Made by a program: the position numbers and the translations under genes. From positions 208,351 to 272,350 of the forward strand of contig DASWXP010000002.1 in the NCBI GenBank assembly GCA_036405415.1: 64,000 bases of DNA. The letters are read 5' to 3'. The stretch is from Minisyncoccota bacterium. GTDB lineage: Bacteria > Patescibacteriota > Minisyncoccia > Phycocordibacterales > Phycocordibacteraceae. The notes under the pieces are model-generated. The model was given only the letters and a program-made list of their open reading frames with translations, had not been told where the DNA came from and ran no database searches. Below, piece after piece: positions 7,906-44,579 of this stretch (position 1 is the stretch's first letter; the number at the start of each line of letters is the position of its first letter).

Positions 7906-8991
7906 CTATTTGGACTTAACTAGCTTCAGTAAATCCTCCTCCCTTTCATATCCGTGCAGACGACCTTCCAGCATACCTAAACGATAACTAATACCATCGG
8001 TCATAAGTCGCCAGTTGGTATCCTGGAGCGTCTTTTTGATAAGCTTTTCCAGATCCTTGGAGCTGGCATACCCCTCCCTATCAGGCCGCTTTTCATACAC
8101 CACGAATGGAACGACGACATCCTTGGAAATCTCCGGGTTCTTGAATTGGAGCTTTATGTAGTCCGCCTTTTCGAGAACGGGAACGAGCAACTCTTCGAGT
8201 TCTATAATCTTCAGCTTCTTGAGCTTTGCGATTTTCTCGTACGATTCCTTGTTCTTCTCTTTCTCCTTTATCTCGTCCATAAGCCGCCCGATCCCCTCAA
8301 GGTTCGCCTTGGCTGCCATGAACTCCTGACCCTCTTTCTCGCTCAGGCAGAATCGCTCGCGATCCTTTTCAAAGTCTGGGTCTGACCTATCGACCATGCG
8401 CTCAATTTCTGAGATATCGGTATAGTCGCAATTCGGGCAGGTAACGACCGTAAACCATTTCTCGTCAGTAGACCTATCTTCCTCCACGACCTCTGCCTTA
8501 CATTTCGGACAGGTAGACTTCTCTCGCCTGAATTCTTCCCCATCGTCATAGAACGCACGACGCGGCATATGCTCCTGAGCACAGTCGTAGAAGAATAGGA
8601 CGCGATCCTTTCCGTCGAGTCCTGCCGAGTGATGGATCTTCGAGCTTACAAACATTAGACGTCCGCAAGTAAGGCAGCTTATGTCTTCAGGAGCTACGGC
8701 TGATTCGTAGAACTTATCGCTACGCTCGTCCCTTTGCATCCACTCCCTAATCGTCGCTTCTTTCTTCAGATATCTATTGCCCTTTATGAAATAGAGACTT
8801 ATACGCGTCACCGCATTGGATGTGCGTATCAGTTCATTCTCATCCACCTCTTTCTCAGGGTGCTTGTCCTTATACGTCTGCTTCAGTCCCTCAATGTCCG
8901 GCGTATGCTTCTCCCACGAACGGCATTTCTCGACAGTGTGCTTGTCGTAGAGGTCTGAGTAATATTGATGTGGTTTTAGACGAGGCTCCAT
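7906..8991 (-). CDS. Zn-ribbon-rich (three CxxC pairs) hypothetical protein, co-operonic with the CBASS-like genes
   Basis: 361 aa with CLTCG, CPKCK and CPNCD motifs; its start lies 1 nt after the E2-like gene stop. Confidence 0.5.
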   Translation of the reverse strand: MEPRLKPHQYYSDLYDKHTVEKCRSWEKHTPDIEGLKQTYKDKHPEKEVDENELIRTSNAVTRISLYFIKGNRYLKKEATIREWMQRDERSDKFYESAVAPEDISCLTCGRLMFVSSKIHHSAGLDGKDRVLFFYDCAQEHMPRRAFYDDGEEFRREKSTCPKCKAEVVEEDRSTDEKWFTVVTCPNCDYTDISEIERMVDRSDPDFEKDRERFCLSEKEGQEFMAAKANLEGIGRLMDEIKEKEKNKESYEKIAKLKKLKIIELEELLVPVLEKADYIKLQFKNPEISKDVVVPFVVYEKRPDREGYASSKDLEKLIKKTLQDTNWRLMTDGISYRLGMLEGRLHGYEREEDLLKLVKSK

Positions 8992-8992
8992 G

Positions 8993-9694
8993 TTATGGAC
9001 TTAGACGAATACTGTGCCTCTGAATCACGGAACGCAATTTTAATAAGGCAATCCATGCAGTGGGATGGCACTGCCTGATTTTTCCAGGACTAGTACAAAA
9101 GCACTTGCTCATTTCCGTTACCCGCTCTCTTCCCGAAAGAACCGCGCGTATGCGATCCCATTTTTTGTCCTTGCGCAGTTGACGGAGACACACCTGAACG
9201 TCCTCAACAGTTCCATTACCACTAGCGAAGGACTGGAAGACACCAGCTGCGCCATGCGCGTATTCTCCCCACGGCCACTTATGGTATTTGTCGAAATAAG
9301 TCTGCTCGTACAGGAAAGGGACTACGAGCTGATCGAGATACTTTATAAAAGAATAGCCTGTCCTTAGGAATTCTTGTTTCTCGACCGGTCCGCACAAGCA
9401 AGCATTACCACTCGTATAAAAGTGCCGATCTAGGACTTTTTCTATCGTGTCATCTTCCACTGTGAGGATAGGAATATCGTCAGCTTCCTTTCCTGGCTTA
9501 ATACGTATCTTATATGTCGCAGTAAGCACCTCACCTGGCGCAACCTGTCCGGACTGAATTAACCATGTAAAACCTGTCTTTGAATCGTACGCGGCAGTAA
9601 AAGTGAGACTGCCACTCACCTCACTACCGTCGGGACTAACGCTTAAGGTCGGGAGCTTTTCTTTAAGCCACTGCTTCTCACTTTCCGGAATCAT
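8993..9694 (-). CDS. prokaryotic E2 (UBC-fold)-like protein, candidate CBASS Cap2-short/E2-only component
   Basis: 'HFYTSGNACLCGP' resembles the E2 HPN..G.ICL active-site region. The start was set at MIPESEK (9694), overlapping the upstream stop by 17 nt. Confidence 0.4.
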   Translation of the reverse strand: MIPESEKQWLKEKLPTLSVSPDGSEVSGSLTFTAAYDSKTGFTWLIQSGQVAPGEVLTATYKIRIKPGKEADDIPILTVEDDTIEKVLDRHFYTSGNACLCGPVEKQEFLRTGYSFIKYLDQLVVPFLYEQTYFDKYHKWPWGEYAHGAAGVFQSFASGNGTVEDVQVCLRQLRKDKKWDRIRAVLSGRERVTEMSKCFCTSPGKIRQCHPTAWIALLKLRSVIQRHSIRLSP

Positions 9695-10592
9695 AGCCAC
9701 CCCAAGGTCGGTTTGGCGTGAAAGTATTCCCCGCCGTATATGCAACCGATGCTGCTGCCGCAGTGCGTACTGACTTCGAGGTTTCGCCTGTGTCCACAAA
9801 GGCCTCCTGCCAGTCTTCGACCTCATCCGAATCCTTGATTCTCTCAAGAACTACTTCAGCTGCCTGAGAAATAGCTCTCTTATCTGAATCTTCAACCAGC
9901 TGAGAAACAATGTTGTTTGTGTTCGCCGGATCAACAAGCTGCATAGAAGCAAAGTCATCCTTGAAAGACTCCATTACTTTAAGGAATGCCTTTCGAAGAT
10001 CACCCTTACTCTGATAACCAGAGAGAGCTTCTACAACGAACAGTTCCAGTACGAACGTCTTGATCTTCAAGTTATTACGATAAGCCCAGAGCTTGACCAG
10101 TCGAATCATCGGAACGCAGCCACTGTTCACGATATAATCAATATGTACTTTCAGATTCGTTTGCATTCTCTGCTTATCGCCGTTTACCAGATGGATGAAG
10201 ACGTCTTTGGTGTCTGTGATGAAACGTCCTGGAACCACGTCGATGTGGAAGTCGCCGGGAGCATCCGAGCCTTTCAGATCCAAGATACGTTCTGCCGATG
10301 CTTTGTGCGTAAGCAAATACTTCTCAGCAAGACGACTCGCCACGTCTTCGCGAATCTCCTTCAGAGAGCGTTCGTCTGAGCTTGGAAAATAGCAAACGAT
10401 GTCGAGGTCGTACCGATCACAAATCATTGTGCCCTTTCCCCTTGATCCGGCATATTTTATTACTGGATCATCACCAAATTCTTCACGAAGAAACTCGGTC
10501 ACTTCCTTCTTGTGCGCCTGCAAAGCTTCCTCCTGAGAATCCGAGAGATTCTGCGAAGCAAGCAGGTCATCCAAATATTCGTTAGGTGTCAT
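9678..10592 (-). CDS. cGAS/DncV-like nucleotidyltransferase (CD-NTase/SMODS-type Pol-beta NTase)
   Basis: 'IKYAGSRGKGTMICDRYDLDIV' is a GS-x9-DxD Pol-beta NTase motif very close to the CD-NTase 'GSyarGTaik.SDvDl' pattern. A third acidic residue lies in 'HIDVVPG'. The protein is 304 aa. Confidence 0.55.
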   Translation of the reverse strand: MTPNEYLDDLLASQNLSDSQEEALQAHKKEVTEFLREEFGDDPVIKYAGSRGKGTMICDRYDLDIVCYFPSSDERSLKEIREDVASRLAEKYLLTHKASAERILDLKGSDAPGDFHIDVVPGRFITDTKDVFIHLVNGDKQRMQTNLKVHIDYIVNSGCVPMIRLVKLWAYRNNLKIKTFVLELFVVEALSGYQSKGDLRKAFLKVMESFKDDFASMQLVDPANTNNIVSQLVEDSDKRAISQAAEVVLERIKDSDEVEDWQEAFVDTGETSKSVRTAAAASVAYTAGNTFTPNRPWGGYDSGK

Positions 10593-10601
10593 ACGATTCT
10601 T

Positions 10602-11771
10602 TTAGTTAATTGTTAATGCTAATTCGTACCCCTCTTCGATACGGTCATACACATGCAATTGAGGGCTTACATCTTTAAGTAATTCCCGTCCGCAAATTAC
10701 CGCAACAGGTGCAGGAACTGCAGCAAAGAGATGAAGCTTACTTTTTGCTCCGTGTTCGTTTTCAATTGCCCTGAGTGCGGACTGATATGTCCGCTGGAAA
10801 GCGTGCAAGGTCTCCTTGGTGGTCACAATCGAACGTCCTGGCTCTCTATCAACGGGAGCTATTTCATAAATGGTGAATTCAGCATCAATACTATTGGGCA
10901 ATGTGTCCGTCCCTATCTTGCCGCTCAACGATAGGAGTAGGGCGACTTTCTCCCGATCTGTACCCTGCTGAATTTGTTTACACTCAAACTGTACGGGATC
11001 TTCACTGCGCCACCGCCAGCCAGCCGGTTCATCTCTATGGTGCTGATAGAAATCTGACGCAATTTTATCACCCAAAGCGTTACCGAGGTGAACAAGAACT
11101 GGTATCCGGGCAAGAGGAAATACCGAAAGATGTCCGACTTGACGGCGTTCTATAGCGGGAGAAATCTGCCGTTCTACAACTTCATTCACTTTCGCGACAG
11201 CTGCAGTCCAGTAACTACCATCGACTTCCTGAGGCAAGGACTGCAAGTCAATCTCGATTGCTCGGTCATCACCCAGGTAACGAGGGTACCTACCTGCATC
11301 CAGAACAGCAGTTCGCACTTCCTCATTTGAGATAGAGACTGCGTCTCCTCGAATATTACCCATTATTCGAAGAACTACGGTCTCATGCTCGACACCCAAA
11401 CCTGTGAGGTACCTAATACGTGATTCGTGCTCGTGCTTATACTTGAGCAGAAGATCTTTCGGATACTGATCCACCTTATCGATAACTGCATGGCACTTGG
11501 TGCAAAGGAGCATGAGATTTGAAATCTGATTCCTTTCTGCAATTGGCATAGGATCATTACCCCGAGGACCACCCTTTGATCGCGCCACTATATGGGCGAT
11601 ATTAGAAAGCCTTACCTCATTGGTGGTCAGTTCATCTTCAAGCAGATACGCATTACATCCGTGAAATTCGCATCTACCACCTGCACGCGTCCACAGCTCA
11701 AAAACCACCGCGTCAGTGGCCTTAATCTTTGGAGCCTCTGTTGGCTCTGCTGCTGTGGCTGAGGTAGGCAT
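10602..11771 (-). CDS. Cap5-like effector: N-terminal HNH endonuclease + C-terminal ~280-aa sensor (SAVED-like) domain
   Basis: HNH motif: RCEFHGCNAYL...AHIVARSKGGPRGNDPMPIAERNQISNLMLLCTKCHAV. A large C-terminal domain follows with no obvious catalytic motif. Start set at MPTSATAAEP, 1 nt after the upstream stop. Confidence 0.5.
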   Translation of the reverse strand: MPTSATAAEPTEAPKIKATDAVVFELWTRAGGRCEFHGCNAYLLEDELTTNEVRLSNIAHIVARSKGGPRGNDPMPIAERNQISNLMLLCTKCHAVIDKVDQYPKDLLLKYKHEHESRIRYLTGLGVEHETVVLRIMGNIRGDAVSISNEEVRTAVLDAGRYPRYLGDDRAIEIDLQSLPQEVDGSYWTAAVAKVNEVVERQISPAIERRQVGHLSVFPLARIPVLVHLGNALGDKIASDFYQHHRDEPAGWRWRSEDPVQFECKQIQQGTDREKVALLLSLSGKIGTDTLPNSIDAEFTIYEIAPVDREPGRSIVTTKETLHAFQRTYQSALRAIENEHGAKSKLHLFAAVPAPVAVICGRELLKDVSPQLHVYDRIEEGYELALTIN

Positions 11772-11772
11772 A

Positions 11773-11982
11773 CTATTTCTTTCTACGGTTGTATGGCGAC
11801 TGATTTGGCGGCGCAAGCTTAATCTTCTTTTCAGAAGCCTTCGCACGTACTCCTGCTTCAGGCCTACCGAGCTTAAGCCCAATCACGCGCGTTGGCGTAT
11901 TACCCTTTGCGAGCTCTTTGAGCTGCTTCACCTCTTCGGGGTTCCACTTCTTACCTGCATTTTTAATGTACTTCTTCGTCAT
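11773..11982 (-). CDS. small basic protein (69 aa), possible DNA-binding/regulatory component
   Basis: Tightly coupled between the LexA-like and Cap5-like genes; 'WNPEEVKQLKELAKGNTPTRVIGLKLGR' is helix-turn-helix-like. Confidence 0.4.
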   Translation of the reverse strand: MTKKYIKNAGKKWNPEEVKQLKELAKGNTPTRVIGLKLGRPEAGVRAKASEKKIKLAPPNQSPYNRRKK

Positions 11983-11984
11983 AC

Positions 11985-12632
11985 CTAAAATTGATTCTTA
12001 ATAATTCCCACTACTTTCCCGCTCAAGAGGAATTCATCGCCCTCATGAATGAAGATTGGTAGGTATTTCTCCGTTGAATCTGCCTCCAGTACGATGCGGT
12101 TGTGCGCCTTATCCTCGCGGTAACGCTTAATTGTGGCGAGTCCGTCGATCACCGCCACGACAATGTCCCCATTTCGGTATGTCTTCTGTTCGCTATCAAC
12201 CAACACGAAGTCACCACTTTCAATGGTCTTACCTGCTTCCACTTCCGCCTTGTTCATCGAATCGCCGTCAGCAATAAGAGCATAGAGACCCTTCTTGTTG
12301 CGCGGAAGAAGCGAAGAGGAAATCTTGAGATACTGATCCACGTTCTCCTCGGCAAAGATGGCTGCGGGACCGCAGTTCGCTGCACCAACCACAGGCAGAG
12401 AGTAGATTGGGCTCGGACTTGCCTTGCTGTACCCCTTGTTTACGAGACGAATTATCCCCTCTTCCAGATTCATCTGAATTAGTCCCGCCTTCTCAAGCTG
12501 CTGAAGGTGGTACTTGGCGGTCTGGGGCTTTCCTGCCGCGCCAAGCATGTCCGCGATCTTGCGCAGGCTGTAGGAACCGAAGTCCTTGTGGGTCGCAATG
12601 AGGTCTAGAAGCTGCTTTTGTATTCGATGCAT
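11985..12632 (-). CDS. LexA-family repressor (wHTH + S24 peptidase), first gene of the operon
   Basis: N-terminal wHTH, Ala-Ala/Gly cleavage-region analogue 'VVGAANCGPAAIF', Ser nucleophile 'GDSM', and Lys in 'TIKRY'. Confidence 0.8.
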   Translation of the reverse strand: MHRIQKQLLDLIATHKDFGSYSLRKIADMLGAAGKPQTAKYHLQQLEKAGLIQMNLEEGIIRLVNKGYSKASPSPIYSLPVVGAANCGPAAIFAEENVDQYLKISSSLLPRNKKGLYALIADGDSMNKAEVEAGKTIESGDFVLVDSEQKTYRNGDIVVAVIDGLATIKRYREDKAHNRIVLEADSTEKYLPIFIHEGDEFLLSGKVVGIIKNQF

Positions 12633-12654
12633 ACCCCTATTATAGCAAATCTCA

Positions 12655-12705
12655 GAGTAAAATGCAAATATTTATTTGACATTTTACACTCTTAGCAATT
12701 ATACT
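12655..12705. promoter_or_regulatory. divergent promoter region with dyad GAGTAAAATG-N15-CATTTTACACTC overlapping a TTGACA-18-TATACT promoter
   Basis: Inverted repeat 12655-12664 / 12681-12692; plus-strand -35 TTGACA at 12676-12681 and -10 TATACT at 12700-12705. The region is a candidate LexA-like operator between the repressor operon and the ParB-MTase gene. Confidence 0.4.
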
Positions 12706-12756
12706 TGAGACACAGAAAGAGGCATCTAGTTAAAAGCCTGCGATACTAGCTCCCGA

Positions 12757-14091
12757 TTGAGGAGACGTTCCCTTGAAAGAGGCGCGGTTGACCTTACAAC
12801 TAGATGTCACTGCCGTATGCAAAGACTCTCTTGGACTACGGTCCAGAAGCGAGTGAACGACCTCGTTCCCCAAGATGTGAATCCTCGTTCTATAACCGAC
12901 CATCAGATGGCGGATCTTAAGCGCAGTCTTAAGAAGTACAACTTGGTAGAGATTCCAGCCATCGATACCAATGGAAATATTCTCGCAGGTCATCAACGTA
13001 TCAAAGCGCTTCAGCTTCTTGGCCGAGGCGATGAACTAATAGATGTACGCTTCCCTTCTCGGAAGCTCACCGAGCAAGAGTCAAAAGAATATCTCATAGC
13101 CTCCAACAAGCTTGGCGGTGATTGGGACTTTGATCTTCTGAAATCGTTCGACCTAACCACGCTTGAATTCGCGGGCTTCGATGAGATAGAGATCGGAGAG
13201 ATATGGGACAAGGATAAGGAAGTAGCAGACGACGAGTTCGATGTTGAAAATGAGCTGAAACAAATTAAGAAACCCAAGACTAAGCTTGGAGACGTAATCA
13301 CTCTAGGCCACCATAGAATCCTCTGCGGAGACTCGACCAAATCTGAGAACCTTAAGCGGCTCCTGGGCAATCAGAAGGCTTCAATGATTTACTCCGACCC
13401 TGTCTATAATCTCGACATCAATTATGACGGTGGGGTTAGCGGGAATAAGGAGTACGGTGGCAAGGTAAACGATTCTCGCTCCTTCGAGGAATATCGAACC
13501 TTCCTGAGAGACAGTATGGAAGCGGCACTAGCCGTGTCCTCGAAAGATACCCATGTCTTCTACTGGTGCGATCAGGTATATATCGGCGTGGTTCAGGAGA
13601 TCTATAGAACGCTTGGCATAACCAATAAGCGCGTATGTCTCTGGCTTAAGAACAATCACAATCCAGTCCCTAGTGTGGCGTTCAACAAGGTATACGAGCC
13701 AGTAGTGTACGGAGTTCGTGGAAAGCCTTATTTAGCTGACACCATGCAGAATCTGAATGAGGTCATGAACAAGGAGATGAGCTCAGGGAATGACCTACTT
13801 GATGAAGTAGATGTCTGGACTGCAAAGCGTCTTTCAGCGAAAGACTATGAGCACGCCACCTCTAAGCCGCCTCAGCTCCACGAGCGAGCCATTAAGCGCT
13901 GCACGAAGCCAGGAGACATCATCCTTGATAGCTTCCTTGGATCAGGCAGTACGCTTATAGCCGGAGAGTCACTCGGTCGCAAGGTTTACGGCTGCGAGCT
14001 TGAACCGCAGTTCTGTGATCTTATCGTACGTAGGTACGAGAAGATGACAGGTAAGAAAGCAGTGTATGAAAAAGACCAAAGCACTGCTTGA
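12757..14091 (+). CDS. ParB-like nuclease domain fused to N6-adenine/N4-cytosine DNA methyltransferase
   Basis: ParBc motif 'ILAGHQRIKALQLLG', MTase motif IV 'DPVYN' and motif I 'FLGSGST'. The start is ambiguous (12757/12817/12907). Confidence 0.8.
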   Translation: MRRRSLERGAVDLTTRCHCRMQRLSWTTVQKRVNDLVPQDVNPRSITDHQMADLKRSLKKYNLVEIPAIDTNGNILAGHQRIKALQLLGRGDELIDVRFPSRKLTEQESKEYLIASNKLGGDWDFDLLKSFDLTTLEFAGFDEIEIGEIWDKDKEVADDEFDVENELKQIKKPKTKLGDVITLGHHRILCGDSTKSENLKRLLGNQKASMIYSDPVYNLDINYDGGVSGNKEYGGKVNDSRSFEEYRTFLRDSMEAALAVSSKDTHVFYWCDQVYIGVVQEIYRTLGITNKRVCLWLKNNHNPVPSVAFNKVYEPVVYGVRGKPYLADTMQNLNEVMNKEMSSGNDLLDEVDVWTAKRLSAKDYEHATSKPPQLHERAIKRCTKPGDIILDSFLGSGSTLIAGESLGRKVYGCELEPQFCDLIVRRYEKMTGKKAVYEKDQSTA

Positions 14092-14650
14092 TAGGCTTGT
14101 AGAAGAACTCGAGAAAACTCCACTGATCCAAATTGCTTGCGACAAAGTCGGTATTTCCAGAAACACCTTCTATCGCTGGATGAAGGAGGACGAGGACTTT
14201 CTCGCTCGTGTTAATGAAGCCGTATCACTAGGTACGGGTCTTGTTAGTGACGTGGCCATAAGCAACGTACTGGAAGGCATCAAGAAGAAAGATGCCATGT
14301 ATACGAAGTATTGGCTAAGCCACAAACATCCTGACTTCCGGCGACCATATGTTCATAGGATCGATGCAGATGATCTCCTTCTACACTCTCGCCTTCTTGC
14401 TGAAGGAGCTCAGAAACATAAGGTTGAGCAACAGATAGCGAATTCACGCGGGTACATCGATGAAGAGATGTCACGGAGACAGGAAGCAGAAGTCGATGAC
14501 TTTATGGAGAAGTGGGATCACATCGTAGCCAAGGGAGACGAAGAACGCGCCAAAGTCTTATTCGAGAAGTGGAAGAAGGAATACGAGACTCAAGTGCCAG
14601 ACACTCCTCCACCCGACAATAAGAAGCCTCGTAAGAAGAGCTGGCGGTAA
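14066..14650 (+). CDS. HTH protein, phage terminase small-subunit-like
   Basis: 'IACDKVGISRNTFYRWMKEDEDF' is an HTH typical of terminase small subunits; the C-terminus is acidic/basic. Confidence 0.45.
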   Translation: MKKTKALLDRLVEELEKTPLIQIACDKVGISRNTFYRWMKEDEDFLARVNEAVSLGTGLVSDVAISNVLEGIKKKDAMYTKYWLSHKHPDFRRPYVHRIDADDLLLHSRLLAEGAQKHKVEQQIANSRGYIDEEMSRRQEAEVDDFMEKWDHIVAKGDEERAKVLFEKWKKEYETQVPDTPPPDNKKPRKKSWR

Positions 14651-14893
14651 TTACTCTTTCCCTTGATCTGCAAGAAGCTTCTTCCCTACCGGAGAATCGA
14701 CTGGGATCATACCCGTTGATCCACACACTGGACATGCTTTATATCGAGAGGTTGATCGCCATATTGAGTAGATAACTCCCGGAATGATGAAGCAGAGGAA
14801 TAGAACTATCTCTATCAACATACTTCCCTTAATTGCCGTACGAGGACTACCTACGTGTCCGCATGACGCACATATCATTTCTTGCTTAGCCAT
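14651..14893 (-). CDS. small Zn-ribbon membrane protein
   Basis: 80 aa with two CxxC pairs (CASCGH, CPVCGS) flanking one TM helix. Confidence 0.45.
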   Translation of the reverse strand: MAKQEMICASCGHVGSPRTAIKGSMLIEIVLFLCFIIPGVIYSIWRSTSRYKACPVCGSTGMIPVDSPVGKKLLADQGKE

Positions 14894-14901
14894 TTTGTTG
14901 T

Positions 14902-15058
14902 TGGTTCGGTTTTGTAATTCCCGATGGCCAGATACACAAAAATCCCGCCACCAGGAGGACCCTTACGAGTATCCCTACCTAAGTTTCCCTAGGTAACCGA
15001 ACCAACGACCCTGATGACGGGGTTTTTACGTTGGTTCGGATTTTCGACCATATCCTTT
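14902..15058. repeat. three copies of GTTGGTTCGG(T/A)TTT (two direct, one inverted) upstream of the recombinase module
   Basis: Copies at 14902-14916 (+), 14995-15006 (reverse complement) and 15042-15058 (+). Confidence 0.35.
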
Positions 15059-15227
15059 GGAAACCAAAGGGGTTAGGCCATTTTTATTTAATTGTAGGCA
15101 GGTTCCCCTGCCGTCTTCTAATGGTATCGCAGTTCTTAGGGTTTGCTAAGCCTGTCCACGACCATGCGACGAATCCCTAGTTCTGCATAGACTATGCACC
15201 GGCCACCTGTCTGGCATCAATTACTAG

Positions 15228-15530
15228 GTGGAGGACAGGGACAAAATACTAGATAAAGCAGACCATTACCGTTTTACGAAAGAAGCCGACAGTGCCTACC
15301 TGAACCGTATTTCCTTTCTTCCCCACCCTAAGGAAGATCTGAAGCGGGCGATTATTGAACGGATTGAGGAGCTAATAGCCACCTACACCTCCCTGGCCAC
15401 CTACGTCCCTGATGAACTAATTGATTGGCTCAATACCCATCAAAGAACGAATAAAAATCGACGGGTCTACCTGAAAGTATTACGAGACATGGAGAGCCTC
15501 CGAAAGGAGGCTCTTACTAAATTGAAATAG
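15228..15530 (+). CDS. hypothetical protein immediately upstream of the serine recombinase (possible accessory/directionality factor)
   Basis: 100 aa, ending 6 nt before the recombinase ORF. Confidence 0.4.
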   Translation: MEDRDKILDKADHYRFTKEADSAYLNRISFLPHPKEDLKRAIIERIEELIATYTSLATYVPDELIDWLNTHQRTNKNRRVYLKVLRDMESLRKEALTKLK

Positions 15531-15536
15531 CGATAT

Positions 15537-16859
15537 ATGCAAACAGATCAATTTTCAGCCTTAATAGGCCAAGCAAACATACCCATAGCAGTTAAGGTTA
15601 AGTACGTCCTCTATGCCCGTAAATCTACCGAGTCCGACGAGAAGCAAGCACTGTCCATAGATTCTCAAGTGAAGGAGATGATGCAAATAGCCGAACGGGA
15701 GAATCTGGAAATCGTAGATATAAGACGAGAAGCCCATTCAGCCAAAGACTCAGGGCAAAGACCCGTATTCAAAGAAATTCTAGAAGACCTAAGAAGAGAA
15801 CGATTCAATGGAATCCTGGTCTGGCATCCCGACCGTTTAAGCAGAAACGCTGGTGATCTTGGGTCAGTCGTAGATCTAATGGATGAGAGACGGCTAGTCC
15901 AAATACGCACGTATGGACAGACATTTACGAATACACCGAGCGAGAAGTTTCTCCTGATGATTCTGTGTTCCCAAGCAAAACTAGAAAATGACAATAAAAG
16001 TATCAACGTAAAACGAGGACTGAAGACGAGAGTAGAAATGGGACTCTGGCCAGCTCCTGCCCCAACTGGATATCTCAAAGAAAAACGAATGGACCGAAAA
16101 TGCGAGACATTGATAGATCCAGAACGAGGACCGATTATAAAGAAAGTTTTCGAGAAAGTAGCGTATGAGAAGTGGAGTGGCAGGAAGATCTATAACTGGC
16201 TCAAGTTTGATCTGAACTTTAAGACCGCTGCGGGAAACAAGAATCTGAGTCTAAGTAACATTTTCACCATCCTTGAAAATCATTTCTATTACGGAGTATT
16301 TGAATATCCGAAGAACTCGGGAAACTGGTATCAGGGCAAACACGAGCCACTTGTTTCCAAAGAGCTGTTCGATCTAGTTCAGGAGCAGGTTAAGAGCCAG
16401 TTCGTTAGATCGGAGAATAAGGAGTTTGCGTTTACTCGACTAATTACCTGTGGCCTTTGTGGCTCGGGAATAACGGCTGACGAGAAGTTTAAGAAGCAGA
16501 AGAACGGGAATGTTCATCGCCACGTCTACTACGGATGTAACAAGTCAAAAGATAGAGCGTGCAAGAGCGGCTATATAAATGAGCCAGCACTTATAGATCA
16601 ATTCGTGGAACTTATGGATCGAATAGATATTAGCGAGATAGGAGTTAAGGAAAAGATAAAGTCTGAGGTTGAGCGACTGAGGAAATTCCAGCAGTCTTTT
16701 CTGGGCATTAAGAGTAAAACTGAGATCAGGGATATAGATATACGGAACTATGCAAAATACCTTCTGCGCGAAGGAGCTGATACTGAAAAACGAGAATTAC
16801 TCGGATGTTTAAGGAGCAAGATTCTTTTAAAGGAGAAAGTCATTACTTTATCTCCATAA
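15537..16859 (+). CDS. large serine recombinase (resolvase catalytic domain + recombinase domain + Zn ribbon)
   Basis: 'YARKSTESDEKQALSIDSQ' catalytic Ser region, 'VWHPDRLSRN', and a C-terminal 'CGLCGSGITADEK...YYGCN...C' zinc ribbon. Confidence 0.85.
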   Translation: MQTDQFSALIGQANIPIAVKVKYVLYARKSTESDEKQALSIDSQVKEMMQIAERENLEIVDIRREAHSAKDSGQRPVFKEILEDLRRERFNGILVWHPDRLSRNAGDLGSVVDLMDERRLVQIRTYGQTFTNTPSEKFLLMILCSQAKLENDNKSINVKRGLKTRVEMGLWPAPAPTGYLKEKRMDRKCETLIDPERGPIIKKVFEKVAYEKWSGRKIYNWLKFDLNFKTAAGNKNLSLSNIFTILENHFYYGVFEYPKNSGNWYQGKHEPLVSKELFDLVQEQVKSQFVRSENKEFAFTRLITCGLCGSGITADEKFKKQKNGNVHRHVYYGCNKSKDRACKSGYINEPALIDQFVELMDRIDISEIGVKEKIKSEVERLRKFQQSFLGIKSKTEIRDIDIRNYAKYLLREGADTEKRELLGCLRSKILLKEKVITLSP

Positions 16860-16904: not shown

Positions 16905-17531
16905 CTAGATTAGAATCAATAACAGTCCTGCTAGTGCCGCCATTCCAAAGTCCTCAATGAGAGTAATCTTGGTAAGCGGTACTTTAAGGAACGTACCCAG
17001 ACACGCACACAAGAATTCTTCCTTGCGAGCAATCTTGATAGCGACTCCAAGGCCGCTGAATAGCATAACAAGAAGCTCTACCCAGAGCAGAGCTGGGTTA
17101 TGTATTCCAGCAAGCATGAGGAGACCGAATGCGAGTTCAAGGAATGGATAGATATATCCATATCCCATCCACTTCTGCGCCAATAGGTCATACGTTGAAT
17201 ACCCCTCAGCGAATCCCTTTAGATCTAGGAGCTTGAAGCCTGCAAAGACGATAAAGAATCCTGCCATGAAGTACCCGATGGTACTGGTGAGCGCAAAGGT
17301 ATCGTTGTAGTAGTCAGCTAGAGATACGGCAATGGTTGATGCCGTCAGGAGGCTGAAGATAACGATAAGCGGTATATAACTCTTCCAAGTTATTGGACCC
17401 AGTCCTCGATCTTCCATTACATGCTTGGGCGTTGCTTTTTCGCTACCTTCAGGCACGAGAACCATCCCACACTTAGGACACTTACCAGGACCTTCCTGGC
17501 GAATCTCTGGATGCATCGGACAGATATACAT
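16905..17531 (-). CDS. heavy-metal-binding domain (CPMHPE...CPKCGM) fused to DoxX/MauE-like membrane domain
   Basis: N-terminal 'YICPMHPEIRQEGPGKCPKCGM' is a Cu/metal-binding HMBD-type motif. The remainder is 4-TM DoxX-like. Confidence 0.55.
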   Translation of the reverse strand: MYICPMHPEIRQEGPGKCPKCGMVLVPEGSEKATPKHVMEDRGLGPITWKSYIPLIVIFSLLTASTIAVSLADYYNDTFALTSTIGYFMAGFFIVFAGFKLLDLKGFAEGYSTYDLLAQKWMGYGYIYPFLELAFGLLMLAGIHNPALLWVELLVMLFSGLGVAIKIARKEEFLCACLGTFLKVPLTKITLIEDFGMAALAGLLLILI

Positions 17532-17533
17532 AC

Positions 17534-18007
17534 TTAGATTGGTTCGTAGCTAATAACGATGTGTTCCCCATCTTTGAGTACAGTGTTTTCGTAGGTATCT
17601 ACCCCTGTACCATCTACGGTAATACGTATTCGATGTGTAGCATCTGCTTTGTAGCTGAGGATCTCATCTTTGCTGAATGGCTGATCCCATACCGCGAAGA
17701 AGTCTGAGAGCGTGAAGTCCCGTTTCTCAGGAGACTCGACATGGATGACTCCATCAGGCGTATGCGTGTGGAGTGCTGTCATGCACGTCTGCTGAACGCC
17801 AATATTTGATGGAACAGGGACGTTCTCTCCATTCGCCACGATTTCGAGCATTGGATGAATATGGAATCCTCCGGCCATTTCGTCATCGCACAGAAGTGCT
17901 AGCTCACGATTCGTAAGTTCCCCTATCGGCTTCTGTGGACTTTGGGAGAAATACAGCAATGCTCCTATTACTGCAATAAGAGAAACAATAATAATTGCGC
18001 TCTTCAT
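17534..18007 (-). CDS. membrane-anchored hypothetical protein (His-rich motifs)
   Basis: N-terminal TM helix; HIHPM and HTHTPDGVIH could bind metal. Confidence 0.4.
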   Translation of the reverse strand: MKSAIIIVSLIAVIGALLYFSQSPQKPIGELTNRELALLCDDEMAGGFHIHPMLEIVANGENVPVPSNIGVQQTCMTALHTHTPDGVIHVESPEKRDFTLSDFFAVWDQPFSKDEILSYKADATHRIRITVDGTGVDTYENTVLKDGEHIVISYEPI

Positions 18008-18008
18008 C

Positions 18009-18407
18009 TTACTGTCCGTACCAAGACGTTTTCCAATCCTGCATCTGCTTTATCTCAGTGTTCTGGGCAGTAATAATGTTCTGCGCCATATCCTTAATCT
18101 CTTGATGCTTCGCATTCTGGAGCGCGAGCTGTGCCATTTGTACCGCCCCCTGATGATGCATAATCATCTCGGTAAGGAAGGCCTGGTCGAAAGCATCTCC
18201 TGTCTTACCGTTAAGTGCCTGCATCATTGAATCCATTTCTCCCTGCATGCCACTGTTCGAACCGCCCATCATTGAGCCGTCAGGCATCATATGTCCACCA
18301 GTTGCCTGCTGCGGAGCTACCGGTGCCTTACTTGCGGCTAGTGCATAGCCACCTCCTGCACCGATAATGAGCGCAATAAGACCAACTACAATTACATTCT
18401 TTTCCAT
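18009..18407 (-). CDS. DUF305 family protein with Met-rich segment (copper-resistance associated)
   Basis: 'FLTEMIMHHQGAVQMA' is the DUF305 signature; the Met-rich 'GGHMMPDGSMMGGSNSGMQGEMDSMM' resembles CopC/PcoC-like Cu-binding tracts. Confidence 0.65.
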   Translation of the reverse strand: MEKNVIVVGLIALIIGAGGGYALAASKAPVAPQQATGGHMMPDGSMMGGSNSGMQGEMDSMMQALNGKTGDAFDQAFLTEMIMHHQGAVQMAQLALQNAKHQEIKDMAQNIITAQNTEIKQMQDWKTSWYGQ

Positions 18408-18444
18408 AAGATTTAGTTAGATTGAGTAAGAAGAAAGTAGTCGC

Positions 18445-18813
18445 TTATGGAGCTTTTGGATTAAGAATGCCGCTGGAGAAAAGTTCTTGTAGAAGCGGTG
18501 TAGCAGGATAGAAGCGCCTACGATACCCGGGCGGGCGCTCAGGCTTCGGGACGGCAAGCCAAAACCATGCGAGCGCAAGAACCGGCACTATAAAAGTAGG
18601 AATTTCTAGAGGGAGAGCTGTAAACGTAGACTGCCAACTACTAAGATGATCAAAAATTGACATAGGACACATAGAAGTCTCGCCCTGCATGAATGGGCAA
18701 CCGCCCATACTGTGATCCATAGGCATAGCCATGAAAACCAACATAAAAAGTGGCACAAGCCCGACAAGTACAATTGACGTCCAGGACAGGAGCTTTTTAG
18801 CACTTATAGACAT
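18445..18813 (-). CDS. membrane protein with Met/Cys-rich motif, hypothetical
   Basis: 'MAMPMDHSMGGCPFMQGETSMCPMS' lies between TM helices. Confidence 0.4.
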   Translation of the reverse strand: MSISAKKLLSWTSIVLVGLVPLFMLVFMAMPMDHSMGGCPFMQGETSMCPMSIFDHLSSWQSTFTALPLEIPTFIVPVLALAWFWLAVPKPERPPGYRRRFYPATPLLQELFSSGILNPKAP

Positions 18814-18865
18814 ATGTCTCTAGTATACCGCTTCTGGTTCTAGCATAGAGCTATACTTTATTTAT

Positions 18866-19315
18866 ATGAAAATGACCAATATGTATGCTCGGTTCGGACT
18901 CATGATACTCATCTCCTTTGCTGCCATGTACATTTTGATGTACGCCATGGTGAATGTGCTTGGAAATGCGCTTCCGAACTGGAATCAGTTTTATATGGCA
19001 GGACTCATGACTTCCCCGATGATAGTGCTTGAAATGCTCTTCATGGGAACGATGTATGGGAATAAGAAATTGAATATAGGAATTATTGTTGGAGGTTTGG
19101 TTTTGCTTGTTATTTTTTGGATAAGTATTAGGCAGCAAGTCGGTATATCTGATGAGCAATTTCTGAAGTCCATGATTCCGCATCACGCCGGAGCAATCTT
19201 GATGTGCAGTAAGACTAAGCTTCAAGACCCAGAGCTGAAAGCACTCTGTACTGGCATTACATCAGGTCAGCAGGGTGAGATCGAGTTTATGAAATCAAAA
19301 CTAAATGGAATGTAG
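18866..19315 (+). CDS. DUF305 domain membrane protein
   Basis: 'MIPHHAGAILMC' DUF305 motif following three TM helices. Confidence 0.6.
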   Translation: MKMTNMYARFGLMILISFAAMYILMYAMVNVLGNALPNWNQFYMAGLMTSPMIVLEMLFMGTMYGNKKLNIGIIVGGLVLLVIFWISIRQQVGISDEQFLKSMIPHHAGAILMCSKTKLQDPELKALCTGITSGQQGEIEFMKSKLNGM

Positions 19316-19502: not shown

Positions 19503-19576
19503 TGGCTGGGAGACTAGGGATCGAACCTAGATTGACGGGACCAAAACCCGGTGTCCTACCATTAGACGATCTCCCA
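19503..19576 (-). tRNA. tRNA-Gln (anticodon UUG)
   Basis: The cloverleaf was folded by hand. Acceptor is TGGGAGA/TCTCCCA, anticodon loop UUUUGGU, T-loop GGTTCGATCCC, with G73 and an encoded CCA. It aligns with E. coli tRNA-Gln. Confidence 0.85.
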
Positions 19577-44057: not shown

Positions 44058-44132
44058 GGGCCAGATGGCGAAGTGGTAACGCTGCGGATTGCAAACCCGC
44101 TATGCACGGGTTCGATTCCCGTTCTGGCCTCC
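44058..44132 (+). tRNA. tRNA-Cys (anticodon GCA)
   Basis: Acceptor GGCCAGA/TCTGGCC, anticodon loop UUGCAAA, T-loop GGTTCGATTCC, encoded CCA. Confidence 0.8.
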
Positions 44133-44136
44133 ATAC

Positions 44137-44219
44137 TGCCGGGGTGATGGAATGGTAGACATAGGGGTCTTAAACACCCCAGGCAGCAATGCCATGCGGG
44201 TTCGAGTCCCGCCCCCGGT
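44137..44219 (+). tRNA. tRNA-Leu (anticodon UAA, long variable arm)
   Basis: Anticodon stem GGGGU/ACCCC with loop CUUAAAC, long variable arm, T-loop GGTTCGAGTCC. Confidence 0.8.
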
Positions 44220-44273
44220 ACCCTGGGAATTGGTATTGAATTCAGGGCGCTTCTTATGTAGAATGCGCCTGTA

Positions 44274-44346
44274 TCCGCCTATAGCTCAGCTGGTAGAGCA
44301 CTCGCCTCTTAAGCGATTGGTCCTTGGTTCGAGTCCAAGTGGGCGG
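44274..44346 (+). tRNA. tRNA-Lys (anticodon CUU)
   Basis: Acceptor CCGCCUA/UGGGCGG, D-arm GCTCAGCTGGTAGAGC, anticodon loop CUCUUAA, T-loop GGTTCGAGTCC. Confidence 0.75.
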
Positions 44347-44357
44347 ACTAGAGAAAA

Positions 44358-44382
44358 GGAGAGGTCTTCGGATCTCTCTTTT
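44358..44382 (+). terminator. UUCG-tetraloop hairpin + T5 inside the tRNA array
   Basis: GAGAGGTC-TTCG-GATCTCTC followed by TTTTT, lying between tRNA-Lys and tRNA-Leu(UAG). Confidence 0.5.
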
Positions 44383-44400
44383 TCTGTTAGGATACGGAGA

Positions 44401-44481
44401 CGCTGGAGTGGCGAAATGGTATACGCGCCTGCCTTAGGAGCAGGTCCCTTCGGGGGTGGAGGTTCGAGTCCTCTCTCCAGC
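44401..44481 (+). tRNA. tRNA-Leu (anticodon UAG, long variable arm)
   Basis: Acceptor GCTGGAG/CTCCAGC, anticodon stem CCTGC/GCAGG with loop CUUAGGA, long variable arm. Confidence 0.8.
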
Positions 44482-44579
44482 ACACACTTGACTTTTTGTA
44501 CAAAATAGTGTTATTTTAGTCCCAGATTCCGTGATCCTTGAGAACACGGTGCAACCACACTCAGCCAAAGGAGCTGGAC

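Follow-up and report, generated by a model that had tools for sequence, protein, structure and literature searches.

A LexA-type repressor on a Patescibacteria integrative element and a candidate operator shared by phage-like genes and a defence operon

Switches built around LexA- and CI-type repressors, SOS-inducible mobile elements and defence hotspots within satellite elements are all familiar kinds of arrangement, and autoregulation is the rule for repressors of the LexA and CI families. Here, we describe a locus from a Minisyncoccota bacterium (Patescibacteria) that can be compared with each of these kinds, using a 64,000-nucleotide stretch of contig DASWXP010000002.1, referred to below as the window. 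A LexA-like repressor gene (11985-12632, minus strand, 215 amino acids) heads an operon that continues into CBASS, an antiphage signalling system based on cyclic oligonucleotides, and it diverges from a phage-like module that begins with a ParB-like/N6-N4 DNA methylase gene. The original prediction proposed, from an inverted repeat between the two, that one repressor might co-regulate both sides. Our analysis leads us to regard as probable a fuller form of this proposal, in which an element-borne LexA-type switch controls phage-like genes and swappable anti-phage cargo.

Like E. coli LexA, the window protein has a winged helix-turn-helix (HTH), a cleavage site in the linker and an S24 peptidase domain with a Ser-Lys pair, and its candidate sites lie over its own promoter. 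The E. coli SOS-box half-site CTGTAT and the window half-site have a TGTA core in common, but the E. coli arrangement is CTGT-N8-ACAG while the window carries GTGTAAA heptamers in direct-plus-inverted arrays, and the Ala-Gly cleavage site of E. coli LexA is replaced by Cys-Gly, as in UmuD. Unlike its E. coli counterpart, the window repressor is encoded by a mobile element, where its gene stands first in a defence operon, and no DNA-repair regulon was seen in the 64 kb. The layout is closer to that of lambda CI (OR/PRM-PR, with the cI-rexAB transcript) and of SetR from the SXT/R391 integrative and conjugative elements. These too have a self-cleaving S24 repressor between divergent promoters, a leaderless repressor mRNA, exclusion or defence genes co-transcribed 3' of the repressor gene, and SOS-inducible mobilisation genes; in the present case, self-cleavage, the leaderless mRNA and SOS induction are predictions. 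In the window, as in those systems, the repressor gene diverges from the early or mobilisation operon of an integrated element and the candidate operator covers the promoter of that operon. The differences are that lambda CI and SetR have an XRE-type HTH and three tandem 17-bp operators, whereas the window has a LexA-type winged helix, one symmetric block of four half-sites and a highly variable cargo slot.

On the side of immunity, the closest parallels are CapW, CapH+CapP and CapK+CapS, which are DNA-damage-responsive regulators of immune operons (10.1101/2022.04.27.489752; PMC11662680; PMC13373217). In these systems, as here, a repressor gene lies just upstream of CBASS and other immune operons and the proposed signal is DNA damage or single-stranded DNA (ssDNA). 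The proteins themselves are unrelated: Pfam and PADLOC find only the S24 and winged-helix parts in the window repressor, with no WYL domain, metallopeptidase partner or kinase, and none of the PADLOC defence-regulator models matches it. The Cap regulators are divergent from their operons while the window repressor is co-transcribed with its cargo, and its sensing would use RecA-stimulated self-cleavage. To our knowledge, CapW, CapH/CapP and CapK/CapS all respond to DNA damage and none does so via classical LexA/RecA. A term search of the CapK/CapS paper found no mention of LexA or S24, and none of the regulators of immune operons described in the literature searched is of the S24/LexA type. 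The defence hotspots of P4/P2 and of phage-inducible chromosomal islands (PICI) likewise combine a conserved integrative backbone, a packaging-related gene and a fixed slot of swapped anti-phage systems. Here, in contrast, the host is a member of the Patescibacteria, the backbone includes a serine recombinase, the ParB-methylase and a LOOT RNA, and the slot lies inside the repressor's own operon. No description of the present element turned up in the literature searched.

Patescibacteria also have a chromosomal LexA; it and its motif, as part of the host SOS network, were reportedly described by Sanchez-Osuna, Barbe and Erill in Environ Microbiol in 2017. A later source that cites the work describes the motif as of the direct-repeat type (PMC7739468). 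The window gene belongs to the same protein family and apparently uses the same half-site, and the direct half-site pairs described below fit that description, but the gene falls in a distinct clade whose members go with a mobile element and with defence cargo.

What is the evidence that the window protein belongs with LexA? Its S24 peptidase domain is readily recognised (Pfam Peptidase_S24, E 1.8e-19); the Pfam matches to LexA_DNA_bind and HTH_20 are weak. The 215 residues align from end to end with the E. coli LexA structures 7B5G, 1JHH and 3JSO, the N-terminus on LexA residues 8-60, the Cys87-Gly88 scissile bond on Ala84-Gly85, and the catalytic pair in register (Ser125 with Ser119, Lys169 with Lys156). 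Cys87-Gly88, Ser125 and Lys169 are invariant in 18 homologues, and the recognition helix of the element-borne repressor, KPQTAKYHLQQL, is likewise invariant in the 18-homologue alignment, a sign of extreme constraint. An AlphaFold2 model with that alignment as input is usable for its N-domain only (mean pLDDT 54.9 overall, 74-87 in this domain), where it consists of three helices and a beta-wing (H3-14, H23-29, H36-48, E52-55, E60-63). This domain is LexA-like, with no Pfam match to the XRE-type HTH_3, and the match to the PHROG 4 'transcriptional repressor' family (1.3e-23) covers the S24 part alone. The NCBIfam equivalog model for lexA, TIGR00498, gives 90.9 bits over the full length, which is under its cut-off of 110.95; chromosomal-type Patescibacteria relatives score even lower (77-84 bits), so that the shortfall is lineage-wide and does not separate paralogues. 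Together these results support the view that the repressor is LexA-like, as the original prediction had it, and that this holds across its whole length.

Related loci were collected from genomes (4), metagenomes (58) and viral sequences (4); a single-protein scan of genome contigs yielded five loci, and the alignment-based scan of metagenomes was far richer. Hundreds of relatives with 78-91% protein identity occur in Patescibacteria metagenomes, while the repressor gene is only about 68-74% identical to its relatives in DNA (blastn), which argues for strong purifying selection on the protein. A neighbour-joining tree of the repressors has three clades, two of which are tied to the element and have the recognition helices KPQTAKYH (the clade that includes the window) and KPQIVKHH or KAQIAKHH. 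The third clade (helix KPQVVKYH) sits in an ordinary chromosomal context, divergent from a 2OG-Fe(II) AlkB-like gene, and is 52-62% identical to the element-borne repressor (54% between clade B and the window protein); its loci are L037, L044, L056 and L062, and also L041, L042, L046-L048, L050 and L053. This sister clade has GTGGAAA-N5-TTKACAC-N2-TTTACAC over its own promoter and is probably, to judge from sequence and setting, the chromosomal LexA of these Patescibacteria, using the same half-site. The shared half-site bears out the idea of a lineage-specific operator, and its position over the clade's own promoter, as in classical LexA autoregulation, favours control by the repressor itself.

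The region between the repressor and methylase genes is 184 bp long (12633-12816) and not, as first described, 124 bp. Independent gene calls (424 amino acids) and the N-termini of homologues place the methylase start at the ATG at 12817; the TTG at 12757, from which the longest open reading frame (ORF) begins, is misleading. Rfam finds no known RNA in this interval. The inverted repeat lies near its repressor end, with arms GAGTAAAATG at 12655-12664 and CATTTTACACTC at 12680-12691 separated by 15 nt, so that the 10/12 match and the gap are as originally described and only the end coordinate, 12692, had to be corrected to 12691. A repeat search returned arms of 11 nt each (12654-12664 and 12680-12690, 15 nt apart) with 10 of 11 positions paired (91% complementary), or 10 of 12 if lengthened to 12 nt. 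With the bases between its arms, this repeat makes up a 37-bp palindrome that is almost unbroken, and as ssDNA positions 12648-12696 fold with -9 kcal/mol (z -4.5), a value that none of 200 shuffles equalled. Taken alone, the inverted repeat is modestly unusual and no more than suggestive, at P~0.03: when the dinucleotides of the intergenic region are shuffled, 2.9% of the shuffles contain a comparable one (at least 10 matches, at most one mismatch, gap of at most 25). It becomes convincing because it is conserved, and not because of the chance estimate. Another candidate, a 19-nt imperfect inverted repeat (12718-12736 and 12793-12811) in the predicted 105-nt methylase leader, was rejected, as it folds no better than shuffles (z -0.36); the upstream sequence of L024 cannot be aligned with this part of the window.

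Two back-to-back promoters flank the centre of the palindrome. The plus-strand promoter towards the ParB-methylase and TerS-like genes (12676-12705) has TTGACA at 12676-12681, an 18-nt spacer and TATACT at 12700-12705; it scores 11 of 12 in a promoter scan, in agreement with the original prediction. That prediction overlooked the divergent minus-strand promoter of the repressor and defence operon (12639-12668), which has TTTGCA (12668..12663), again an 18-nt spacer, and TATAAT (12644..12639), scores 10 of 12 and carries an extended -10 element, TGcTATAAT (12647..12639). Only 6 nt separate its -10 box from the repressor ATG (predicted start ~12632), and of 31 non-redundant relatives whose -10 box is strong, 20 have precisely this distance. 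From this spacing, the repressor mRNA is probably leaderless.

Between and over these promoters lies what we propose to be a composite operator (12655-12689), recognised from the repeat, the fold, motif enrichment and column identity. It is built of four half-sites, each a heptamer, in a two-fold symmetric order: GAGTAAA (12655-61) and ATGCAAA (12662-68), a 7-nt spacer (12669-75), and TTGACAT (12676-82) and TTTACAC (12683-89). The inner pair doubles as the -35 boxes of both promoters, and the outer pair fills the first bases of each spacer; on the plus strand, operator half-sites account for the -35 box and for the spacer's first 8 nt. As the TGTAAA/TGTCAA half-site is the complement of a -35-like hexamer, the predicted binding should put the repressor in direct competition with sigma-70. 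One copy of the exact core GTAAAATG-N10-20-CATTTTAC is present in the window (0 expected), and no composite arrangement of half-sites was found elsewhere in the 64 kb.

The strongest argument for the operator comes from its relatives. GTGTAAA/TTTACAC is the top-enriched 7-mer upstream of the repressor family, present in 34 of 44 non-redundant regions against 0.4 expected, and it persists down to 52% protein identity, where the remaining DNA is unalignable. The heptamer recurs in different arrangements and orientations among clades and is present whichever gene neighbours the repressor (the methylase, the C4 family, the AlkB-like gene or others), which argues that the repressor itself is the binder. 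A weak covariation points the same way: helices ending in KYH go with GTGTAAA, and those ending in KHH with C-containing variants, among them GTGTCAA, CCGTAAA and CCGTCAA. Within the window's clade, GTGTAAAATGTCAA, which comprises one arm and the -35 box, is invariant although the flanking DNA cannot be aligned, and 8-9 of 11 loci retain the second arm, TTTGCATTTTACT. Column identity in this clade is 0.99 at 12683-89 and 0.97 at 12676-82, 0.84 at both 12662-68 and 12655-61, 0.77 in the spacer and 0.60 in the outer flank. Similarly, in 11 loci blastn homology running out of the repressor gene halts at 12689-12693, the edge of the operator, and does not pick up again before the methylase start.

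The full dyad is kept in L024, L006, L008, L014 and L021, and nearly so in L013/L060. The original prediction had named absence of the dyad upstream of orthologous repressor genes as a reason to abandon it, along with its occurring only once; a search for further copies, run in the 64-kb window, gave none, and the conservation upstream of orthologues was found. The plus-strand promoter is conserved as well, with TTTTACAC directly 3' of the -35 box, and the layout TTGACA-TTTTACAC-N8-10-TAnAnT recurs upstream in relatives. The repeat is conserved, but the fixed 10/12 dyad with N15 is not the conserved unit, as the spacing of the outer arms varies among clades (N5, N12, N21). What persists is the heptamer half-site in clade-specific arrangements: the family-wide plan is two direct half-sites (period 7-9) with one inverted half-site five bases off, and the window's clade has doubled this plan into the symmetric GAGTAAA ATGCAAA - N7 - TTGACAT TTTACAC array. 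A search of IMG/VR with the 14-mer GTGTAAAATGTCAA gave more than 120 scattered matches, judged to be at about chance level (an estimate, not a computed value) and uninformative on a regulon. We also rejected a reading of the palindrome as an attP or pac site, given that the element is integrated and that the motif is found in the chromosomal clade, which has no recombinase or terminase genes.

The genes behind the repressor promoter form a tightly packed operon, of which the repressor is always the first gene in element loci. In the window, the repressor stop codon is followed after 2 nt by a gene for a 69-aa basic protein (11773-11982, minus strand; PHROG 323 'transcriptional regulator, D5-like', 2.2e-10) and then by the CBASS cargo (7906-11771, minus strand). 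The latter comprises an HNH-SAVED effector of 389 aa (10602-11771; PADLOC 9.7e-119, Pfam SAVED 4.3e-36), a CD-NTase (9678-10592; PADLOC cyclase 2e-68), an E2-like protein (8993-9694; PADLOC 5e-31) and a 361-aa protein with CxxC pairs and no Pfam or PADLOC match (7906-8991). With CD-NTase, SAVED-HNH and E2-like proteins in contiguous genes, the system is a type II, E2-only CBASS with a Cap5 effector. The effector begins at 11771; the longest-ORF start at TTG 11882 is again misleading, and the shorter gene leaves space for the 69-aa protein. Gaps from the repressor into CBASS measure 1-10 nt by gene calls, and in nearly all loci, whatever the cargo type, the next gene follows the repressor after 1-17 nt. 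With the operator overlapping both -35 boxes and the CBASS genes so closely spaced, the originally proposed co-regulation of both sides is architecturally plausible.

CBASS turns out to be one of many cargoes in this position, a point that the original prediction missed. Directly 3' of the repressor gene, PADLOC places a defence hotspot in about 40 loci (L001-L060) with CBASS of several cyclase clades, Pycsar (PycC and PycTM), Thoeris (ThsB and ThsA-macro), Shedu, TIR-like and membrane proteins, a TIR fusion, a caspase-like protease, a metallo-beta-lactamase-fold PDC-M48B/LmuA-like protein and PDC-S54, so that at least eight kinds of defence system are headed by the LexA-type gene. Because the cargo varies in a fixed position, the window CBASS appears as one occupant of a hotspot inside the repressor's operon. 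The second gene also varies (families C7, C5/DUF2188, C9, C13 and C10), the family of the 69-aa protein (C7) trailing the repressor in 8 loci with different cargo. As a separate observation, the family of the 361-aa protein (C11) occurs also in L002, L023, L024 and L035, and another family without Pfam or PADLOC matches (C8, ~190 aa) in L002, L014, L024, L035, L049 and L058. Irrespective of the defence system present, both occupy the distal end of the cargo region, and each may either delimit the element on its right-hand side or be a common accessory.

On the other side of the operator lies the conserved backbone of the element. The ParB-like/N6-N4 DNA methylase gene (12817-14091, plus strand, 424 aa; N6_N4_Mtase 2.1e-31, PHROG 498 5e-90, ParB-like 2.5e-24) is followed on the same strand by the gene for a terminase-small-subunit-like HTH protein (14066-14650; Pfam Sf6_terminase 2.4e-6, PHROG TerS 4.6e-9) and, further on, by a 100-aa ORF and a large serine recombinase gene (together 15228-16859, the recombinase at 15537-16859; Resolvase, Recombinase and Zn_ribbon_recom domains, PHROG 95 integrase 2.4e-62). 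The order of methylase and TerS-like genes with a divergent repressor recurs in 24 loci. Gene clustering over all loci gives, on this side, a serine recombinase, a TerL-like gene (PHROG 38, 1.9e-78) or small variable gene, the TerS-like gene and the ParB-methylase, with a 137-aa protein as an occasional extra member; on the opposite side come the LexA-like gene, a small protein and then variable cargo. The repressor is thus carried by a small, phage-derived, Patescibacteria-wide integrative element. The window from about 6 to 20 kb is an island of low G+C (45-49%, against ~60% for the genome), and a GyrA with 93% identity places the host in the Paceibacterota. In elements of the L001 type, all backbone genes including the recombinase run in one direction. 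In the window, the recombinase lies beyond a convergent unit of LOOT RNA and an 80-aa ORF and so probably has its own promoter; the divergent promoter points at the methylase and TerS-like genes, and the recombinase is probably not part of their transcript, which corrects the original view of one co-regulated phage-like module. Integration next to tRNA genes was considered as a general trait and rejected: a tRNA-Gln gene (19503-19576, minus strand) is present beside the low-G+C island of the window, but 14 related loci have no tRNA.

How would such a switch work? Repressor dimers would bind the heptamer half-sites (consensus GTGTAAA), four of which would form the 35-bp operator at 12655-12689, and its occupancy would exclude RNA polymerase from both back-to-back sigma-70 promoters. 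The ParB-methylase/TerS-like side, with consensus and invariant half-sites, would be repressed tightly. The repressor's own leaderless operon, running into the 69-aa protein and the type II CBASS, would be repressed more weakly through the degenerate GAGTAAA and ATGCAAA. DNA damage or phage replication would generate RecA-ssDNA filaments and stimulate self-cleavage at Cys87-Gly88 by Ser125/Lys169. Cleavage would derepress both units, raising the cargo above its basal autoregulated level and turning on the phage-like genes. The analysis itself shows the protein features, the geometry of operator and promoters with its conservation, the operon and its varied cargo; from these we infer DNA binding by the repressor, its stoichiometry, the difference in site strength and the dependence on RecA.

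Several observations weigh against this proposal. Only a single site was found in the 64 kb, so no regulon backs the motif within this fragment, and the P-values for its enrichment are inflated by the kinship of the sequences. The two promoters alone would account for some of the symmetry, since their -35 boxes are the inner half-sites, and the varying distance between inverted half-sites (N5, N12 or N21 between outer arms) defeats a single rigid model of one dimer on one dyad. In other sub-clades, of which L001 and L023 are examples, the repressor -35 box is not covered by the operator, which sits immediately upstream of it, and autorepression, and hence cargo induction, may be specific to the window's clade. 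The cargo genes may also have internal promoters. For the CBASS part, the main rival is one in which the repressor controls the phage-like module only, in a lysogeny-type switch, while CBASS is steadily co-expressed, like lambda rexAB with cI, and is not induced by damage. It would explain why the repressor-proximal half-sites are degenerate and less conserved (0.84 against 0.97-0.99) and why the operator is off the repressor promoter altogether in several sub-clades, and with its perfect extended -10 box that promoter should be strong unaided. We nonetheless think steady co-expression unlikely, if worth taking seriously: in the window's clade the proximal pair covers the repressor -35 box and the start of the spacer, its retention in 8-9 of 11 loci would be difficult to account for if it had no function, and autoregulation is usual for the LexA and CI families.

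A different question is which protein reads the sites. Perhaps the host chromosomal LexA is the main reader, the element being plugged into the host SOS regulon while its own protein is redundant or has another target. The non-mobile sister clade beside the AlkB-like gene does use GTGTAAA/GTGGAAA/TTTACAC at 54% identity to the window protein, and a Patescibacteria LexA with its motif has been reported (Sanchez-Osuna et al. 2017, cited in PMC7739468). Against this stand the presence of the motif beside the element-borne gene in every locus, the extreme constraint on the element-borne recognition helix, and the fact that no host lexA is visible within the 64-kb window, so that we consider the idea rather improbable as it stands; cross-talk with host LexA is plausible, being compatible with self-regulation, but it is no substitute for it. 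Another DNA-binding protein of the element, either the 69-aa HTH-like protein or the TerS-like HTH protein, might also be imagined to recognise the repeat, both being small and encoded beside the site. The motif, however, stays in loci that lack those proteins, the second gene varies, and the chromosomal clade has neither, making this the least credible of the alternatives. Scarcely better is the notion that the palindrome is a by-product of back-to-back promoters with no repressor bound. The inner half-sites are indeed the two -35 hexamers, and the repeat alone has P~0.03, but the outer arms GAGTAAA and TTTACAC lie in spacers, where sigma-70 has no sequence requirement, yet are 84-99% conserved, and the same heptamer, differently arranged and oriented, turns up in other clades as far out as 52% protein identity.

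The element may carry a second cargo slot, led by an RNA. A LOOT RNA (Rfam RF03000) lies at 14956-15079 on the minus strand, with 78.7 bits against a gathering threshold of 46.4 and model positions 1-121 of 121 covered, and a gene for an 80-aa zinc-ribbon/membrane protein (14651-14893) follows 3' of it on the same strand. The non-coding segment 14895-15221, which includes LOOT, is the best-conserved DNA between the window and L024 (82.5%). LOOT is above threshold in 15 related loci (L001, L002, L003, L008, L009, L019, L020, L023, L024, L033, L035, L038, L052, L058 and L059), where it adjoins the serine recombinase/TerL block, and it was absent from both chromosomal-clade loci searched (L044, L056). 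A variable gene always follows 18-70 nt 3' of LOOT on the same strand; the products are mostly secreted or membrane proteins and include a zinc-ribbon/transmembrane protein, a secreted SNase, a tRNA_anti-like OB protein, DUF4268 and others. A conserved promoter-like sequence, TTAGCAAA-N15-TGCGATAnnAT, stands upstream of LOOT, and its 3' end has a terminator-like hairpin. We know of no function for LOOT RNA; the arrangement points to a leader that acts in cis on a second cargo slot, or else to a small RNA. Between the LOOT promoter and the genes for the 100-aa ORF and recombinase (window ~15183-15199) there is also a second conserved palindrome, TGCATAG(N0-2)CTATGCA, which recurs in L019 (855-869), L024 (3373-3387), L058 (2575-2588) and L059 (2756-2769) and could be a regulatory or recombinase-related site. 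Past the recombinase, the low-G+C island also holds small genes (16905-19225) that have no relation to the conserved element, and the gene at 17534-18007 among them has a homologue in the chromosomal-clade locus L037; four clustered tRNA genes (Cys, Leu-TAA, Lys and Leu-TAG; 44059-44483) lie in the host part of the window.

What would the element-borne switch mean for these bacteria? A broader picture, possible but tentatively held, is that satellite-like elements are widespread in Patescibacteria, that a captured LexA paralogue has become both master switch and leader gene of a swappable immune operon, that RecA-triggered cleavage licenses abortive infection, and that LOOT leads a second slot. 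If this is true, there would be a fourth, single-protein route from DNA damage to the expression of abortive infection, beside CapW, CapH/CapP and CapK/CapS, and LOOT, so far an orphan RNA, would have found its genomic home and, as leader of the second slot, a candidate role; the genomic context itself is given by the loci described above. The finding bears on how toxic abortive-infection systems stay silent but ready, and it offers a compact operator-repressor pair that is directly testable in E. coli. Patescibacteria, with their tiny genomes, are reported in one study to carry defence systems at an unusually high density (PMC12259885). The element family described here may explain how defence genes move among these bacteria of the candidate phyla radiation (CPR).

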